9,751 nucleotides of DNA from a virus (lineage: Duplodnaviria > Heunggongvirae > Uroviricota > Caudoviricetes). The translations under genes were made by a program, and so were the position numbers. Positions 2,664 to 8,124 of this stretch are shown here, in pieces (the first letter of the stretch is position 1; each line of letters begins with the position of its first letter). The notes under the pieces were generated by a model, which worked only from the letters and a program-made list of their open reading frames with translations, made no database searches and was not told where the DNA came from. The DNA is taken from the IMG/VR virus record IMGVR_UViG_2802429241_000003. One strand, given 5' to 3'.

Positions 2664-3320
2664 ATGAAAAGCAACGACGAGAACATCAAGAAAGAAATAG
2701 GTCTGCGCATTCAGACTCTACGGAAACAATCCGGCATGACTGCCGGAGATCTCCAGCAAGTCACTGGAATAGGCTTAAGCACCTTGCAGAACTATGAGGC
2801 CGGATTAAGACAACCATCTATACCTGCCATCAAGAAAATCGCGCACGCCCTGAAAGCATCAGCGCCTTATATCGCGTGCTTAACAGATAACCCGTTCCCA
2901 CCCCAGAATACTAACGCTCCTGTTATTCCTGGGCTTGTAGCTATAAAAAATGACATAGCATCGCACGCCGGAGAAAAGCCAGTGCTGGCGATAGAACAGG
3001 AGATTCTACGAAGCAAGAACATCAACCCATCGTCTCTGTCAGTTCTCCAGAGCAACGATGAGTTAATGTCACCAACAATATCCCCAGGCTCCCAAGTCCT
3101 GATTAATACAGACGATACAGAGATTCATGAGGGGATCTATGCCCTTGAAGACAGAAATGGCCTGGTTGTTTTGAGGCACTGTAGAGTCATACCGGGTGAC
3201 AATGCTGTTATGCTGTCAACCGAAAGGGATGCTGAAATGAACACTAAGCATCTGAATAACGAGGAATTTAAGCGTTATAAAGTTCTTGGCCGCGTAGTTA
3301 GTGTTGTCAACTGGTTATGA
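2664..3320 (+). CDS. CI-like phage repressor: N-terminal HTH_XRE domain plus C-terminal LexA/S24-peptidase-like domain
   Basis: 218-aa ORF. HTH segment LRKQSGMTAGDLQQVTGIGLSTLQNYEAG; C-terminal segment with M-S-P-T-I-S-P-G-S-QVLIN spacing typical of the S24 fold. Divergent from the cro-like gene across palindromic operators. Confidence 0.8.
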   Translation: MKSNDENIKKEIGLRIQTLRKQSGMTAGDLQQVTGIGLSTLQNYEAGLRQPSIPAIKKIAHALKASAPYIACLTDNPFPPQNTNAPVIPGLVAIKNDIASHAGEKPVLAIEQEILRSKNINPSSLSVLQSNDELMSPTISPGSQVLINTDDTEIHEGIYALEDRNGLVVLRHCRVIPGDNAVMLSTERDAEMNTKHLNNEEFKRYKVLGRVVSVVNWL

Positions 3321-3362: not shown

Positions 3363-3377
3363 ACCACATTTTGTGGT
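3363..3377. promoter_or_regulatory. Fourth operator copy (accacattttgtggt) between the repressor gene and the downstream 124-aa gene
   Basis: Perfect ACCAC-N5-GTGGT palindrome; TTGACA at 3382-3387 lies adjacent. Confidence 0.5.
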
Positions 3378-3915: not shown

Positions 3916-3937
3916 CAAACATATGGAGTCTCGACAA

Positions 3938-4591
3938 ATGACTATATCTGTAGGTATTTTCAACGGAAAAGGCGGCGTAACCAAATCAACCATTGCTCGT
4001 GCTTTAGCAGTTGCTTATGCAAAGGCTGGCTGGAATGTATGCCTGATCGATATGGATGTGCTTAACGGAACGGTAACGCGTTGGGTACAACGCAGAATGG
4101 CCAACAATATCGAACCAGCAATCGCGGCGCAGCCGTGCGGCACACCATCACAAGTCCAGAAAATCATCGAATCAGAAGTATACGACCTGGTTATCGTCGA
4201 TGGCGGTGCCTACGCATCTGAATCAGTACCGAAGCTCTCTGAATTTCTGGATATGGTTATTTTGCCAACCAGATTCTCTACCGATGACCTGGAAACCACC
4301 GTTAACACAGCTCACGGCATCGTTAAAAAGGGTGTACCAATCAAGAAAATTTGCATGGTGTTTTCCGGCGCGGCTGAAAACGAAGCTGACTATATTGAAG
4401 CCCAAGAGTACCTGGCTAATACGCCATACTTTGTTGTCGATAAGTACATTCCCCACAAGCCAGCTCTGAGCAAAGCTCAGGATAAGGGCTTAAGCCTCAT
4501 TGAGTGCTCATACGTTGCGCCACGCAAAAAGGCAGACGACGTTATTCAGGGGATTATCAACCAGCTTGAGGCTCTGACTACTGCCGCGTAA
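3938..4591 (+). CDS. parA: ParA/ParF-type partition ATPase (deviant Walker A), type Ib partition system
   Basis: GIFNGKGGVTKST Walker A-like box, LIDMD A'-box, DLVIVDGG Walker B. GGAG sits 9 nt upstream of the ATG at 3938; the track's upstream ATG at 3923 has no SD. Confidence 0.85.
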   Translation: MTISVGIFNGKGGVTKSTIARALAVAYAKAGWNVCLIDMDVLNGTVTRWVQRRMANNIEPAIAAQPCGTPSQVQKIIESEVYDLVIVDGGAYASESVPKLSEFLDMVILPTRFSTDDLETTVNTAHGIVKKGVPIKKICMVFSGAAENEADYIEAQEYLANTPYFVVDKYIPHKPALSKAQDKGLSLIECSYVAPRKKADDVIQGIINQLEALTTAA

Positions 4592-5104: not shown

Positions 5105-5128
5105 TAAAAAAGGCCCCCGAAGGGGCCT
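5105..5128 (-). terminator. Intrinsic terminator for the minus-strand small ORF
   Basis: On the minus strand: hairpin ggcccc-ttcg-ggggcc (7 bp with the flanking A-T pair) followed by TTTTTT (5105-5110); on the plus strand the hairpin lacks a downstream U-tract. Confidence 0.6.
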
Positions 5129-5133
5129 AATCG

Positions 5134-5256
5134 CTACTTGCTGCTAATGTTTATCGTCACATTCAGAGCGTTATCAGTAATCTTCCAACCCTCCCCATGT
5201 GGCGTAAACAAAGCTCCAGTAACAACGATAAAAATACACATACAGTATTTTTTCAT
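5134..5256 (-). CDS. 40-aa small hydrophobic protein, candidate type I toxin (MKKYCMCIFIVVTGALFTPHGEGWKITDNALNVTINISSK)
   Basis: Internal ATG of the 60-aa track ORF with AAGGG SD about 8 nt upstream; hydrophobic N-terminal stretch; strong terminator immediately after the stop; candidate -10 TATAAT (minus strand, 5411-5416) about 150 nt upstream. Confidence 0.35.
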   Translation of the reverse strand: MKKYCMCIFIVVTGALFTPHGEGWKITDNALNVTINISSK

Positions 5257-5320
5257 TGTATGGCCCTTACAGGCCGTTTCACGGCATCCCCACCGACGAA
5301 AATGACGCGAGAGCAAGCAC

Positions 5321-5340
5321 GCTGTTTGTGCCTGCGTGGT
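5321..5340. repeat. Copy A of a 20-bp direct repeat (gctgtttgtgcctgcgtggt); lies in the predicted 5' leader of the small-ORF mRNA, where it is read as its complement
   Basis: 19 of 20 identity with 5570-5589; flanking sequence shows a diverged duplication of about 80 bp (ctgaaag and gcgaatc shared). Confidence 0.6.
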
Positions 5341-5569
5341 ACGGCAAGTGGATAATCCTTTCCTGAAAGTCGGTGCCCGGTTGCGAATCGGCGAAAAGGC
5401 CCCAAGCCATATTATACGTCATCCCCTTCATAATGAAGGAATAAAAAACGCTTTTATTACATAGAATTACACGTAAATAAGTTAAAAACCTTCATTTTGC
5501 ATGAGCTAATGAGCTAAATTTTTTATATGAATAGTGGACTATTCACCTAAATTGGGTAAGAATGTAGTT

Positions 5570-5676: not shown

Positions 5677-6222
5677 CTACCACCGCCCTATTGATTCAAG
5701 TATTAATGAAGGTGAATCATTTGAATTATTCGATTTTGCACCGTTATCGACCCAATCTCTGTATGCTTCATCACAACAGTACCTTACAGCAGTTGGAATA
5801 ACAGGGATGCCGCCCCCAAATGAGAACCCCATTGAGCTTATGCTAATTCTGTCGGATGGCCTATTTCTCAATGCTTCAAATCCCTTGCTGTTGAAGTAAC
5901 TCAGCATCAGAGGCAAAAGGTTATCCTCGTCCTGACTGATTGTTCCAGGGAAAAAGTAGTAACCATAGCGATTAAATTCGGGGATCAGTTTTTCTACCAA
6001 CAACATGAAATTCATTGGGCTAATATTAAGGGCTGTGCAAGCACCAAAAAGGGCATCAACTGTTAATACAGACTGCCCGTTCTCTATCTTTGTCCATGCG
6101 TTTGGTGTTTTTCCGGCAGCTTGAGCCAGCACTCCTTGATGCACACCTCTTTCTAGCCTAAGCTCTTTTATGATCATTAGGTGGATTGTTGAAAAACATG
6201 AGTTTTTTGACGGATCAGACAT
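5677..6222 (-). CDS. HTH_XRE-domain protein with a C-terminal domain of unknown function (181 aa)
   Basis: ATG at 6222 with GGAG 7 nt upstream; N-terminal IIKELRLERGVHQGVLAQAAGKTPNAWTKIENGQS is a Cro/C1-type HTH; stop lies inside an 11-bp inverted repeat (5655-5665 and 5683-5693). Confidence 0.6.
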   Translation of the reverse strand: MSDPSKNSCFSTIHLMIIKELRLERGVHQGVLAQAAGKTPNAWTKIENGQSVLTVDALFGACTALNISPMNFMLLVEKLIPEFNRYGYYFFPGTISQDEDNLLPLMLSYFNSKGFEALRNRPSDRISISSMGFSFGGGIPVIPTAVRYCCDEAYRDWVDNGAKSNNSNDSPSLILESIGRW

Positions 6223-6406
6223 TTTTTAGCTCCATATAAAACTCTATCTTTGTTCTCAATTTTAACAAACTGCCCATCTTGGGAATGTGTTGTTCCTTGT
6301 GAGAACTATACATTCCCATTTCTGGTATATCAAGAAAATTAAAAGCTCGGCATTCAAACCCACGCTATGTGGTTGTCTCTGTTAAAATCCCGCCGTATTG
6401 ACATGA

Positions 6407-6505
6407 ATGCGCCATTGGTGGACACTTTCCGAGCCGTAGCAAAATCTACGGTCGGGATTGGCGTCCCGATTGCACAATGGCGCATACCGCGTTAGCGGTT
6501 TTTTT
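6407..6505 (+). ncRNA. Structured element: 11-bp long-range stem enclosing two adjacent 6-bp hairpins, followed at once by an intrinsic terminator; candidate leader/attenuator or small RNA
   Basis: Outer stem 6407-6417 aatgcgccattg pairs with 6475-6485 caatggcgcat; hairpins ccgtag-caaaat-ctacgg and tcggga-ttggcg-tcccga; terminator accgc-gtta-gcggt plus T7 (6486-6505). TTGACA at 6397-6402 lies just upstream. Confidence 0.3.
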
Positions 6506-6607
6506 ATGCGTAAAGCACTGCTACACCCAAATTATGGTGGGGCGTGCGGGGGCGGAGAAATCCGCGCCGGGTTTGTCATTGTGCCGGTTACGCCAACCCT
6601 GTACGTC

Positions 6608-6641
6608 TCACCACCATATTGATTGGCGTCATTGGTGGTGA
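6608..6641. promoter_or_regulatory. Inverted repeat TCACCACCA-N16-TGGTGGTGA in the promoter region of the antirepressor-like operon
   Basis: 9-bp perfect arms at 6608-6616 and 6633-6641; a third ATTGGTGG half-site at 6414-6421; lies 27-60 bp upstream of the ATG at 6668. Confidence 0.4.
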
Positions 6642-6667
6642 TAGTTCCTTTAATCGGAGATATCACA

Positions 6668-6859
6668 ATGACAAACCTACCCCATGACTATTACGTCAAC
6701 CTCGTAAAGATCCTTCTCAAGAAAGCCTCATACGCCGATAAATTCCGCCTGGCTGAAATCATAGAGCGCGAAGCTATGCGCATCGCCAGCAACGATAACG
6801 CTGTTTCTGACGCAAAAATCTCCCTCGTAACCAAAGTAGTTATGGGAGGTGCAAAATGA
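6668..6859 (+). CDS. Hypothetical small protein (63 aa), translationally coupled to the downstream antirepressor-like gene
   Basis: ATG at 6668 with GGAGA SD 8 nt upstream; stop TGA overlaps the ATG of the next gene (ATGA at 6856-6859). Confidence 0.45.
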   Translation: MTNLPHDYYVNLVKILLKKASYADKFRLAEIIEREAMRIASNDNAVSDAKISLVTKVVMGGAK

Positions 6860-8124
6860 AAACGCTTCCGACCGTTAACACCCTACAGCCTATCCTGCAT
6901 AACCAAATCCCTGTCATTACTACCGAGTTACTGGCACAGCTTTACGGCGTATCTCCTGTACGCATTCGACAAAATCATCATGAGAATAAGGAACGCTTCA
7001 TTGAAGGTAAGCACTACTTCAAAATTGAAGGTAACGAACTTCGAGAGTTAAAGCACAAAGTGACTCAAGATAATGATGTGAAGAACAAAAACTCTTTAAG
7101 AGATTCAGTTAATGACGCCCCCTCTAAAAGAGAGAGCGTCGAGCACAGAGTAGTTTTAAACTACTCTGTTAACCACAAGGTAACTAAAAGTCACTCTGTG
7201 AAAATCGCCCGTAACGTTCGCTCCCTCATTCTCTGGACAGAACGCGGGGCTGCACGTCACGCTAAAATGCTCGAAACTAACCAAGCGTGGGATGTGTTCG
7301 AACGGCTGGAAGACTGCTACTTCAACCAGAACGCGCAAACGGCCGCGACCGTTACCGTCTCGCCAAACAATGCTCGTGAGGTTGTCGATACGCTCAACGC
7401 CAAACCGATGTTTTACATTAAGGTGTGCAACAACGAGCCACTCACAACCTCAGCCGATGTTGCCCAGGCATTCAGCACCACAAACAATTCCATCGTTATG
7501 GCCATCGATGCGCTACGCATTCCTCGCACGGCTGCGGCACGTCATTTCTTTAAAGAGCAACGACCGCTGGAAGGAAGCGACCGCGAAATAACAATCTATC
7601 GCATGACAAAAGACGGATTTACCTTGCTCATGGAAAGTATCGACGGTCCAGGCGTGAAGGATATCAAGCTGGCCTACATTGAAGCCTTTAACGCTATCAG
7701 CAGCGTGTTAAAAACACAGTACGAGCGCGATCTGGCTAAACGACTGTACCAGGAAAAAACGATTATCCGCGCGGCAACAGAGCATAATCGGCTATTAACG
7801 GAACCGAACTACAGGAAGGAACTAATCAAGGAGTTTGACAAGGCAACAGGGAAAACCAAAGCGACGCTAAATCTGCCAGCAATGACTCAGGAAAATGTGA
7901 TATCAGCCTTACTTCTTGATCTGCTCAGAAACGCCAGAGCACTTATCAGCTTTGACGAAAACCTGAATCCTCAGCTCAAGCTACTACCACCGACAGGCAA
8001 AGTAGTCGACCAAGCTGATCACAACAGCATACTCAGCGTTCTGGATGCAAACCTGCCAGCCAGGACACTACAGGATCTGATAAAAACATGTGCTGATAAG
8101 CTGGCACAGAAAAGCAGACCATAA
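6856..8124 (+). CDS. Antirepressor-like phage regulatory protein: N-terminal ORF6N-like domain, central Rha-like domain, unassigned C-terminal region
   Basis: 422 aa. N-terminal ITTELLAQLYGVSPVRIRQNHHENKERF...ILWTERGAARHAKMLETNQAWDVFERLEDCYF resembles ORF6N; central RMTKDGFTLLMESIDGPGVKDIKLAYIEAFNAI resembles the Rha family (TRDGF..L.M.F.G.....K..YI.AFN). Strong GGGAGG SD 6 nt upstream. Confidence 0.75.
   Translation: MKTLPTVNTLQPILHNQIPVITTELLAQLYGVSPVRIRQNHHENKERFIEGKHYFKIEGNELRELKHKVTQDNDVKNKNSLRDSVNDAPSKRESVEHRVVLNYSVNHKVTKSHSVKIARNVRSLILWTERGAARHAKMLETNQAWDVFERLEDCYFNQNAQTAATVTVSPNNAREVVDTLNAKPMFYIKVCNNEPLTTSADVAQAFSTTNNSIVMAIDALRIPRTAAARHFFKEQRPLEGSDREITIYRMTKDGFTLLMESIDGPGVKDIKLAYIEAFNAISSVLKTQYERDLAKRLYQEKTIIRAATEHNRLLTEPNYRKELIKEFDKATGKTKATLNLPAMTQENVISALLLDLLRNARALISFDENLNPQLKLLPPTGKVVDQADHNSILSVLDANLPARTLQDLIKTCADKLAQKSRP

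Follow-up and report, generated by a model that had tools for sequence, protein, structure and literature searches.

Which kind of regulatory element occupies positions 6223–6667 of the window (the 9,751-nt stretch of viral DNA analysed here), upstream of a gene for an antirepressor-type protein? The initial annotation had noticed nested hairpins and a terminator in this interval, and had offered a regulated leader, a small RNA or an origin-associated structure as explanations. We find that the interval is a genuine, ordinary member of the RNA-switch family known from P1, N15 and Salmonella Gifsy-1, and not a new type of leader. More precisely, we assign it, with a probability of about 0.88, as the regulatory leader of an antirepressor operon of the P1 immI, N15 immA and Gifsy-1 isrK type; the regulated leader that had been proposed holds in general terms. 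Our reading follows from the layout of the region, its Rfam matches, the complementarities within it, their co-evolution, the covariation of its helices and the antirepressor gene downstream. The elements run in the order promoter(s), a1, b1, terminator, C4 (with b′ and a′), a2, b2 at the ribosome site, small ORF, antirepressor. The carrier is a 48-kb E. coli phage-plasmid family.

An IsrK-type RNA and a C4 antisense RNA

Family membership is established by two Rfam matches, both above their curated thresholds. The search, which had been suggested as a check in the initial annotation, returned an IsrK-type RNA at 67.3 bits (gathering score 50) and a C4 antisense RNA at 72.3 bits (gathering score 45); the Rfam c4-a1b1 model scored 41.7, below its threshold of 46.7. 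The IsrK match agrees with the earlier suggestion of a small RNA ending near 6505.

6433–6505, plus strand: IsrK-type short leader RNA (Rfam RF01394), comprising hairpin 1, hairpin 2, b1 and the terminator
6458–6464, plus strand: a1 site UUGGCGU, in the loop of hairpin 2, complementary to a′ (6590–6596) and at the position of P1's annotated a1
6473–6479, plus strand: b1 site CACAAUG, complementary to the b′ core (6577–6583)
6486–6505, plus strand: intrinsic terminator with a 5-bp stem, a GUUA loop and a U run (−7.6 kcal/mol)
6530–6618, plus strand: C4 antisense RNA (Rfam RF01695)
6570–6583, plus strand: b′, in the loop of C4 hairpin 2, with the core CAUUGUG at 6577–6583; 14 nt complementary to b2
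6590–6596, plus strand: a′ site ACGCCAA, in a single-stranded stretch of C4, complementary to a1 and a2 (7 nt each)

The IsrK-type RNA opens with two hairpins, which had been described as two adjacent 6-bp helices; both are present, with 7 bp including one G.U in hairpin 1 (6433–6452; 6433–6439 with 6446–6452) and 5 bp in hairpin 2 (6453–6468; 6453–6457 with 6464–6468). They are followed by the intrinsic terminator ACCGC-GUUA-GCGGU (6486–6499), with its U run extending to 6505; this end lies 163 nt before the AUG at 6668, in agreement with the distance of about 160 nt first given. The terminator is short and modest, which is compatible with some leakiness in its predicted action; an equivalent hairpin is found in P1 and N15. 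The two hairpins and the terminator covary across homologues: six of the seven pairs of hairpin 1 show changes on both sides, the outer stem pairs of the terminator covary and its U run is conserved. Overall, 93.3% of cells in the IsrK helices are paired, as opposed to 30–40% when the partners are slid, in a homologue set gathered by a pattern that fixes the hairpin 1 loop and a1 as UUGGC, so that the conservation of those columns is by construction.

C4 has the RF01695 fold, a long closing stem around two hairpins, and 15 of its 24 consensus pairs show compensatory changes (40 sequences). By alignment with P1's annotated 77-nt C4, the mature RNA is predicted to span 6536–6615; the folding energy of these 80 nt is −45.8 kcal/mol (z = −4.3). 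The promoter scan found no separate C4 promoter between 6505 and 6530. C4 is the main component of the interval that had originally been flagged, and neither it nor the a and b target sites had been recognised.

Two target sites bracket the ribosome site of the small ORF

6609–6640, plus strand: alternative hairpin within the palindrome 6608–6641, pairing the C4 3′ arm CACCACC (6609–6615) with GGUGGUG (6634–6640), a2 in the loop; read from covariation
6623–6629, plus strand: a2 target site UUGGCGU, a few nt after C4, at the position of P1's annotated a2
6638–6666, plus strand: local hairpin GUGAUA/UAUCAC with the Shine-Dalgarno GGAG (6656–6659) in its loop, read from the sequence and seen in the centroid fold
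6664–6677, plus strand: b2 target site CACAAUGACAAACC, an exact 14-nt complement of the C4 loop, covering the AUG (6668–6670) of the 63-aa ORF
6668–6859, plus strand: 63-aa ORF at the position of P1 icd (ORF list; phrog_7886, function unknown)
6856–8124, plus strand: 422-aa antirepressor-type protein with ORF6N and Rha domains (Pfam PF10543, 9e-20; PF09669, 4e-12)

Both arms of the predicted C4 interaction show exact complementarity. The b′ sequence GGUUUGUCAUUGUG (6570–6583) is the exact reverse complement of 6664–6677, and a′ is complementary to a2, such that the two target sites bracket the Shine-Dalgarno. The a1 and b1 sites are duplicates of these targets upstream of the C4 gene, placed as in P1; GAUUGGCGUC is identical at 6456–6465 and 6621–6630. 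Local duplex energies for b′ are −23.3 kcal/mol with b2 and −16.2 kcal/mol with b1. We used these local values since loop-loop contacts are beyond the reach of nested-structure folding: when C4 was cofolded as a whole RNA, be it with IsrK or with its target, the gain was close to nil (+1.7 and −2.5 kcal/mol). Full-length duplex values of −63 and −57 kcal/mol were discarded as evidence; they are this large because both partners are completely unfolded.

The C4 3′ arm also covaries with an element downstream of it (CCAUCACC/GGUGAUGG, CUACCACC/GGUGGUAG, UCGCCACC/GGUGGCGA, CCGCCACC/GGUGGCGG), and N15 has a counterpart of the resulting hairpin (GCUACCACC/GGUGGUAGC). The initial annotation had related the palindrome 6608–6641 to the left half of a long-range stem further upstream. 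The shared 9-mer is indeed there (CATTGGTGG at 6413–6421 and 6630–6638), but it is not kept in sister alleles, the second copy being replaced by GAATGGCGG in both pRHB38 and JE86.

The 63-aa ORF ends within the start of the gene that follows, with a stop/start overlap of 4 nt (ATGA, 6668–6859/6856–8124), as in P1 icd/ant1. The downstream partner has antirepressor domains, and it matches many PHROG anti-repressor families. The 63-aa ORF is not a homologue of P1 Icd, to which it has no similarity.

The a and b sites co-evolve

In 97 related leaders we found 47 distinct b′ loop sequences, and b1, b′ and b2 change together. For b1, the duplex energy with a leader's own sites is −9.7 kcal/mol, as compared with −5.5 kcal/mol for sites from other loci; for b2 the values are −14.3 and −10.3 kcal/mol, the leaders being non-independent and the p-values of this comparison accordingly inflated. 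Sister plasmids with a backbone about 97% identical carry three a alleles and two b types in different combinations, in which a1/a′/a2 and b1/b′/b2 are always three-way matched by Watson-Crick or G.U pairs: the a′ alleles ACGCCAA, AGGCUAA and GUUCCAA pair with UUGGCGU, UUAGCCU and UUGGAAC, respectively. One family member is a plasmid in the reference strain ATCC 25922 (NZ_CP009073.1, leader at 19146–19470), whose allele shares the window's b type and has a different a; the vB_YpM_41 allele has the window's a with a different b. At the sequence level, the matched combinations are the pattern of P1/P7 heteroimmunity. Mixed alleles on a near-identical backbone suggest that secondary immunity is diversifying among co-circulating phage-plasmids, much as between P1 and P7. 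The results further suggest that the a1/b1 leader is everywhere under selection to match C4. The role of a1 and b1 is given only as ‘putative’ in the P1 annotation.

Promoters and the outer closing stem

6360–6372, no strand assigned: operator-like palindrome CCACGCTATGTGG, in the −35 region of the upstream promoter candidate
6380–6388, plus strand: upstream promoter candidate, extended −10 TGtTAAAAT (sequence scan); its start would be at about 6395
6398–6426, plus strand: proximal promoter with −35 TTGACA (6398–6403), a 17-nt spacer and a weak −10 GACACT (6421–6426), by alignment with homologues
6407–6485, plus strand: 11-bp closing stem (6407–6417 with 6475–6485) around the two hairpins, by exact complementarity, retained in the fold

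The proximal promoter aligns position by position with the −35 and −10 conserved in about 100 homologues, and also with P1's annotated P1c4/P51b and the sequence that precedes isrK in Gifsy-1; it was absent from the output of the consensus scan because its −10 matches only three of six positions. Its predicted start site, at 6432/6433, would place the two hairpins at the 5′ end of the transcript. About 40 nt above it lies the candidate for a second start, which would probably be repressor-controlled. The extended −10 of this upstream candidate is unchanged in nine family alleles, and a promoter-like site at this position occurs in 6/6 leaders of the window's family and 17/25 of the CATAGT subfamily, against 1/37 and 1/37 in the other two groups. 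The palindrome in its −35 region has the form CCAC-N5-GTGG, of which the window holds four perfect copies (0.07 expected; 0/200 shuffles reach four), the others being at 2510 and 2613 (both in the divergent intergenic region of the gene for a 218-aa CI-like repressor) and at 3364. Repressor binding at 6360–6372 is putative.

The long-range stem reported initially, together with the two hairpins and the terminator that it precedes, is present: AUGCGCCAUUG (6407–6417) is the exact reverse complement of CAAUGGCGCAU (6475–6485), forming 11 bp, and 6407–6505 folds at −49.9 kcal/mol (z = −5.9; 0/200 shuffles as stable), within a wider interval, 6400–6680, with z = −7.0. The minimum-free-energy fold of 6407–6505 retains the outer stem and the terminator but pairs the second small hairpin differently; Rfam and covariation back the two-hairpin form. 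Nine of the base pairs are identical in all nine family alleles, and the stem covers five of the seven nucleotides of b1. The covariation analysis called for at the outset bears out the hairpins, the terminator, the C4 stems and the 6608–6641 palindrome, and leaves the outer stem as a lineage-restricted feature. A general test for this stem across homologues was negative, with 78 of 87 distinct leaders having ≤6 bp, on a par with arms paired across loci; a signal emerged only when leaders were split by promoter type. The stem co-occurs with the upstream promoter in two lineages; in the other lineage its sequence is different, and the commonest state of one pair is U.G (11/18). P1 was considered as a third example and rejected: the long-range helix in the fold of its P51a leader uses the 3′ arm of hairpin 2, and a specific test gave z = +0.6, which is not significant.

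The 5′ arm of the stem falls in the spacer of the proximal promoter, between −35 and −10, a position that had been overlooked; the stem can therefore be present in RNA only if transcription starts upstream. We tentatively suggest, as a possibility that has the odds against it, that the stem marks a second leader isoform: transcripts from the repressor-controlled upstream promoter would carry a 5′ extension that masks b1, proximal transcripts would leave b1 free, and promoter choice, hence the state of the main prophage repressor, would set whether the leader counteracts C4 or lets it repress. If this is correct, Gifsy-1 IsrK would become the decoy of a C4 RNA; neither the IsrK paper (PMC4825925) nor a 2025 review (PMC12197685) draws this connection. 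It is improbable that the two arms form no RNA helix and are instead a DNA inverted repeat whose halves, one in the promoter spacer and the other near +45, bind a regulator such as the divergent 181-aa helix-turn-helix protein. The spacer of a conserved promoter is a classical operator position, the gene for that protein adjoins the region, and both arms are invariant in the nine alleles even though the adjacent b1 varies. On the other hand, ATGCGCCAT was rejected as a repeated protein site, there being no further copies in the window's regulatory regions and a count in the window at chance level; a U.G pair as the commonest state in the other lineage fits RNA better than a symmetric protein site; and the stem co-occurs with the very promoter that would transcribe it.

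A proposed mechanism and its alternatives

In immI modules of the P1 type, C4 is excised from the operon transcript, with RNase P acting at its 5′ end, and blocks translation with Rho-dependent polarity; in P1, the block of the small ORF causes Rho-dependent termination before ant. For the element described here, we propose that transcription would start immediately ahead of hairpin 1, with a probable second start at the repressor-controlled promoter about 40 nt higher. Part of it would end at the 6505 terminator to give a 73-nt IsrK-type RNA that displays the target-site copies a1 and b1, while the remainder would read through; judging from P1 and Gifsy-1, an ~80-nt C4 RNA would be cut from the read-through transcript. 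The b′ loop and the single-stranded a′ of C4 would then pair with b2 (6664–6677) and a2 (6623–6629). Bracketing the Shine-Dalgarno and covering the start codon, this pairing would block the 63-aa ORF and, through translational coupling, the 422-aa antirepressor as well, probably with the termination polarity seen in homologues; with both blocked, the prophage would stay repressed. Conversely, the a1/b1 copies, in cis or as the free short RNA, may occupy a′ and b′, so that C4 would be counteracted and the antirepressor turned on. We model this trans activation on the homologues: in Gifsy-1, IsrK turns antirepressor expression on (PMC4825925). Start sites, termination and read-through are, for this element, predictions from its sequence.

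A different route to the antirepressor is described by the Gifsy-1 authors, who attribute activation to translation of an ORF inside the C4 region and not to titration of an antisense RNA (PMC4825925). Applied to the window, control would lie mainly in a small ORF of 35 codons (AUG 6534, stop 6641): the short leader RNA would open a closed mRNA fold, ribosomes would load and move on, and C4 would be no trans repressor. In Gifsy-1, mutation of the orf45 start codons or insertion of a stop lowers IsrK activation of anrP (PMC4825925), and the window shares this AUGGUGG start, from which the frame runs to 6641. However, this ORF ends 27 nt before the next AUG, the stop/start overlap of Gifsy-1 being missing; the C4 region evolves as RNA, as the compensatory changes in its stems indicate; the amino-acid sequence of orf45 is variable according to the Gifsy-1 authors themselves (relayed in PMC12197685); and the homologous P1 RNA is an established trans-acting repressor (P1 annotation; PMC12197685). 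We consider it quite unlikely that such translation is the main control.

The initial annotation had also pictured regulated attenuation at the 6505 terminator, where a Q-like antiterminator of the phage, by allowing read-through, would decide transcription of the antirepressor operon. A real intrinsic terminator does sit in the leader, and a Q-like gene adjoins isrK in Gifsy-1 (PMC4825925), but no Q family match was obtained in Pfam or PHROGs among the ten long ORFs scanned here, and the annotation of a sister plasmid, over 13 kb, lists no such gene. Furthermore, Gifsy-1 reporter constructs show read-through without AntQ, and in the Gifsy-1 cascade IsrK leads to antirepressor expression and this in turn to antQ expression, which places AntQ downstream of the antirepressor (PMC4825925). 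The Q model, which in addition leaves the conserved, covarying a/b complementarities unexplained, is in our judgement very improbable. The last suggestion, a structure tied to a replication origin or to partition, might be prompted by the location of the element on a plasmid prophage and by a ParA-like gene at 3923–4591. It has a negligible probability: no iterons or AT-rich unwinding element were seen in the region, every structured element is accounted for by RNA families with covariation, repA lies several kb away on the sister plasmid, and the same IsrK and C4 module is also present in integrated lambdoid prophages and Stx phages.

Comparison with known systems

One of the closest parallels to the C4 leader proposed here is immI of P1 and P7 (P51a/P51b, a1, b1, c4, a2, b2, icd, ant1/2; C4 antisense RNA, RF01695), which has all elements in the same order and the same C4 fold. 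In both, two C4 sites pair with targets that bracket the ribosome site of a small ORF overlapping the antirepressor gene by ATGA, and upstream copies a1 and b1 are followed by a terminator-like hairpin; tandem promoters, the upstream one beside an operator-like site, are likely here as in P1. Elements that are otherwise almost the same differ in their a and b sites, as P1 and P7 do. The site sequences are not those of P1 (a is UUGGCGU here and UUGACAG there, b is CACAAUG here and GUUAGUG there), and b2, with its 14 nt of complementarity, covers the start codon, whereas P1 b2 covers the Shine-Dalgarno. Further differences are a small ORF with no relation to Icd, an antirepressor with ORF6N and Rha domains, and a carrier that is a 48-kb phage-plasmid and not P1.

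The isrK-orf45-anrP region of Gifsy-1 (IsrK RF01394; STnc1160; PMC4825925) has a leader RNA of the same family with identical a1 and a′, a terminator that is partly read through, a small processed RNA downstream and then an antirepressor-like gene; Rfam scores its ‘orf45’/STnc1160 region as C4, at 69 bits. In Gifsy-1, pairing of a1 with a′ was demonstrated with two compensatory mutants, G28A/C162U and G31A/C159U (PMC4825925), which map exactly onto a1/a′, of the same sequence in the window, and the small processed RNA is lost on deletion of the isrK promoter (PMC4825925). In contrast to the element described here, Gifsy-1 has b2 on the Shine-Dalgarno of anrP itself, no separate small ORF at the icd position, a single TATATT-type promoter and no closing stem.

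N15 is likewise a plasmid prophage. Its immA scores as IsrK (62 bits) and as C4 (79 bits) with an annotated terminator between them, and has matched a/b sites (UCUCAAC and ACAAGA) besides the alternative hairpin noted above; its a/b specificities and downstream proteins are different from those here. Ravin et al. reportedly described this secondary immunity region, in 1999, as an antirepressor operon controlled by a small processed RNA (cited in PMC4488713). The satellite phage P4 resembles our element in its logic: its CI RNA, with seqA, seqB and seqC, is a small RNA processed from a leader that pairs with repeated sites up- and downstream. The outcome in P4 is premature transcription termination of replication genes, whereas here it would be a translational block of the antirepressor. 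P4 seqA was called a structural homologue of IsrK by the Gifsy-1 authors (PMC4825925).

The basic picture, known since 1990, is unchanged by these comparisons. They tie P1 c4, the N15 immA RNA and Salmonella IsrK/STnc1160, which were described as separate systems, into one family, and they allow RNA genes and target sites to be labelled in a region that, in a common family of E. coli phage-plasmids, is unannotated or carries doubtful protein calls.

An IsrK-C4 module in the leader

When the entire window was scanned against Rfam, three matches fell within the divergent intergenic leader (6223-6667): IsrK and C4 antisense RNA, both above threshold, and the a1/b1 target motif. Copies of the target sites lie 5' (a1/b1) and 3' (a2/b2) of C4, and a' and b' are the complementary sites inside it; we assigned these elements by position relative to P1 and by complementarity. 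The leader is a real, densely structured member of an RNA family known since 1990. The window adds a new member to that family, not annotated before and with a b specificity of its own.

Features of the leader
6360-6372: palindrome CCACGCTATGTGG, in the -35 region of the upstream promoter candidate
6380-6388, +: upstream promoter candidate, extended -10 TGtTAAAAT
6398-6403 and 6421-6426, +: proximal promoter, -35 TTGACA, 17-nt spacer, -10 GACACT
6407-6417/6475-6485, +: outer stem, 5' arm AUGCGCCAUUG, perfect reverse complement of 3' arm CAAUGGCGCAU
6420-6472, +: a1/b1 target motif (RF03163), 41.7 bits, slightly below the threshold of 46.7
6433-6505, +: IsrK (RF01394), 67.3 bits, threshold 50
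6433-6439/6446-6452, +: hairpin 1, inside the outer stem
6453-6457/6464-6468, +: hairpin 2, inside the outer stem
6458-6464, +: a1 UUGGCGU, hairpin 2 loop
6473-6479, +: b1 CACAAUG
6486-6505, +: terminator ACCGC-GUUA-GCGGU, directly 3' of the outer stem; U run ends at 6505
6530-6618, +: C4 antisense RNA (RF01695), 72.3 bits, threshold 45
6570-6583, +: b', loop of the second C4 hairpin
6590-6596, +: a' ACGCCAA, within C4
6623-6629, +: a2 UUGGCGU
6656-6659, +: Shine-Dalgarno GGAG
6664-6677, +: b2 CACAAUGACAAACC, spanning the AUG at 6668
6668-6859, +: 63-aa ORF, first gene 3' of the leader

The outer stem, two hairpins and stem-plus-U-run terminator described in the initial annotation are all present, and RNA folding of 6407-6505 (-49.9 kcal/mol, z = -5.9) indicates that they are not due to chance; for 6400-6680, z = -7.0. 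The 63-aa ORF shares an ATGA overlap with the 422-aa antirepressor-type gene, whose product has ORF6N and Rha domains and matches many antirepressor families. The proposal that a Q-like antiterminator acts here found no backing: a scan of ten long ORFs gave no Q-type protein, and no such gene is annotated in a sister plasmid. An origin-associated structure was also rejected, origin features not being seen.

Correspondence with P1 immI

The P1 record annotates, in order, promoters P2c4/P51a (with a C1 operator) and P1c4/P51b, a1, b1, C4, a2, b2, icd and ant1; Rfam adds a weak IsrK-like match in P1, with a terminator hairpin positioned 3' of b1 and 5' of C4. Aligned to P1's 77-nt C4, mature C4 in the window would be 6536-6615, a predicted RNA that folds at -45.8 kcal/mol (z = -4.3). 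The local duplex that b' would form with b2 has an energy of -23.3 kcal/mol, against -16.2 with b1.

In the palindrome at 6608-6641, CACCACC on the left doubles as the 3' strand of the stem that closes C4, GGUGGUG on the right (6634-6640) repeats the C4 5' arm, and a2 occupies the loop. Since homologues show covariation between this right arm and the C4 3' arm (CCAUCACC/GGUGAUGG, CUACCACC/GGUGGUAG, UCGCCACC/GGUGGCGA, CCGCCACC/GGUGGCGG), the palindrome is a conserved structure that the unprocessed transcript can form in place of the C4 fold; the N15 arms read GCUACCACC/GGUGGUAGC. The 9-mer CATTGGTGG noted earlier is indeed common to this palindrome and the outer stem, but it is not retained in sister alleles.

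Covariation across homologues

We collected 120 viral contigs with the a1b1 motif and 13 with the small ORF, giving 111 distinct leaders. Conserved among them are the promoter hexamers, U run, C4, a2 and a GGUGGUGA element; conservation of the hairpin 1 loop and of a1 is by construction, as the search pattern fixed that loop and a1 = UUGGC. Both-side changes occur in 6 of the 7 hairpin 1 pairs, with 93.3% of cells paired overall versus 30-40% with partners slid. The outer pairs of the terminator covary, and C4 has compensatory changes in 15 of 24 consensus pairs.

The b sites are highly variable (47 distinct b' loops), yet always matched, as in the b1/b'/b2 sets GUAACC/GGUUAC/GUAACC, UCACCG/CGGUGA/UCACCG and GCAUACG/CGUAUGC/GCAUACG. 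Pairing is stronger within a locus than between loci for both b1 (-9.7 versus -5.5 kcal/mol) and b2 (-14.3 versus -10.3); relatedness among the sequences inflates the p-values. One viral contig holds two such modules: its a1b1 leaders (3965-3988 and 7227-7250) lie ~3.3 kb apart and differ in b1.

Matched alleles in a phage-plasmid family

Yersinia phage vB_YpM_41 and ~50 non-mobilizable ~48-kb E. coli plasmids with ParA and RepA, one of them from ATCC 25922, match the window at 97.7% identity; the element is therefore a phage-plasmid. Its leader is 100% identical to that of plasmid CP099296.1. The family comprises ~48-kb non-mobilizable phage-plasmids of E. coli and E. albertii that have genes for ParA, RepA, a Hin-type invertase and a RelE/ParE toxin; phages isolated with Yersinia pestis as host share 96-98% identity with them.

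Divergence peaks in the immI leader, which is 85-90% identical on a ~97% identical backbone, and the differences lie at the a and b sites.

Sister alleles of the a and b sites
Window: a UUGGCGU, b CACAAUG
ATCC 25922: a UUGGAAC, b CACAAUG
vB_YpM_41 / pMB9880: a UUGGCGU, b AUCAUCAUG
AR_0015: a UUGGAAC, b AUCAYCAUG
pRHB38: a UUAGCCU, b CACRAUG

Every allele has its matching complement in C4 a' and b' (Watson-Crick or G.U). Judged from sequence, matched a/b alleles on a near-identical backbone are the P1/P7 heteroimmunity pattern. Annotated protein genes start in or overlap C4 in vB_YpM_41 (7355-7642, hypothetical protein), pMB9880_3 (398-685, hypothetical protein) and N15 (2083-2373, gene 32); such calls are probably over-extended or spurious.

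Elsewhere in the window, 5106-5404 (- strand) gives a strong Rfam ryfA match (RF00126; 136 bits, threshold 80) that holds a small hydrophobic reading frame (MKKYCMCIFIVVTGALFT...). In enterobacteria, ryfA-type loci are type I toxin-antitoxin-like, and the match would fit a plasmid-stability module on a phage-plasmid.

Promoters and the closing stem

Every position of the proximal promoter aligns with its counterpart in the homologues' conserved promoter, in P1 P51b and in the Gifsy-1 promoter. The 5' arm of the outer stem falls within its 17-nt spacer, and transcripts from ~6433 therefore cannot contain this stem. Taken over all homologues, the stem is not a general feature: 78 of 87 distinct leaders have ≤6 bp here, the same as between-locus pairings. 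We retested the stem after splitting leaders by promoter type, counting stems beyond shuffles (z < -2).

Closing stem and upstream promoter-like site by group
Window family: stem 3/3, site 6/6
'CATAGT' subfamily: stem 82% of 22, site 17/25
Gifsy-1-like 'TATATT' group: stem 6% of 32, site 1/37
Other leaders: stem 0% of 31, site 1/37

In the CATAGT subfamily the stem is 88% paired versus 24-52% slid, with both-side changes in only 3 pairs. A consensus scan of one contig of this subfamily, L022, found tandem promoters 44 nt apart, and its longer transcript has the window's folded architecture in other sequence (z = -4.5); P1 did not pass the specific closing-stem test. The co-occurrence of stem and upstream promoter is suggestive rather than proof, because the groups are essentially two lineages, and the inverted repeat may instead act at the DNA level. 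This lineage-restricted closing stem may be linked to a second, repressor-controlled promoter.

CCAC-N5-GTGG, the motif in the -35 region of the upstream candidate, has 4 perfect copies in the window against an expectation of 0.07; besides the one here, three surround the CI-like repressor gene. Copies of this type, often reading AAACCAC...GTGGT, flank that gene (2664-3320) at 2510-2522, 2531-2543, 2613-2625 and 3364-3376 and are probably operators of the primary immunity region. The upstream candidate with its palindrome resembles P1's C1-controlled P51a. On the - strand, a good sigma-70 promoter match (6305-6333, TTGATA-17-TATAGT, 10/12) faces the divergent 181-aa helix-turn-helix gene (5677-6222).

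Comparison with Gifsy-1 and N15

In the Salmonella prophage Gifsy-1, Rfam gives 79 bits for isrK and 69 bits for C4, the latter exactly over the published 'orf45'/STnc1160 region (34131-34214, - strand); b2 sits on the anrP Shine-Dalgarno sequence. There the isrK terminator is leaky; the long mRNA, silent in translation, is activated in trans by the short RNA; and an ~80-nt RNA that needs the isrK promoter is processed from the read-through transcript (PMC4825925). That paper does not mention P1 c4 or connect the locus to it, and IsrK and c4 appear as separate entries in a 2025 review. The compensatory mutants published for Gifsy-1, G28A/C162U and G31A/C159U (PMC4825925), map to a1/a' pairs, of which the sequence is identical to the window's. 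N15 immA, described in a title cited in PMC4488713 as under control of a small processed RNA, has the same IsrK and C4 pair as the window, with an annotated terminator between them.
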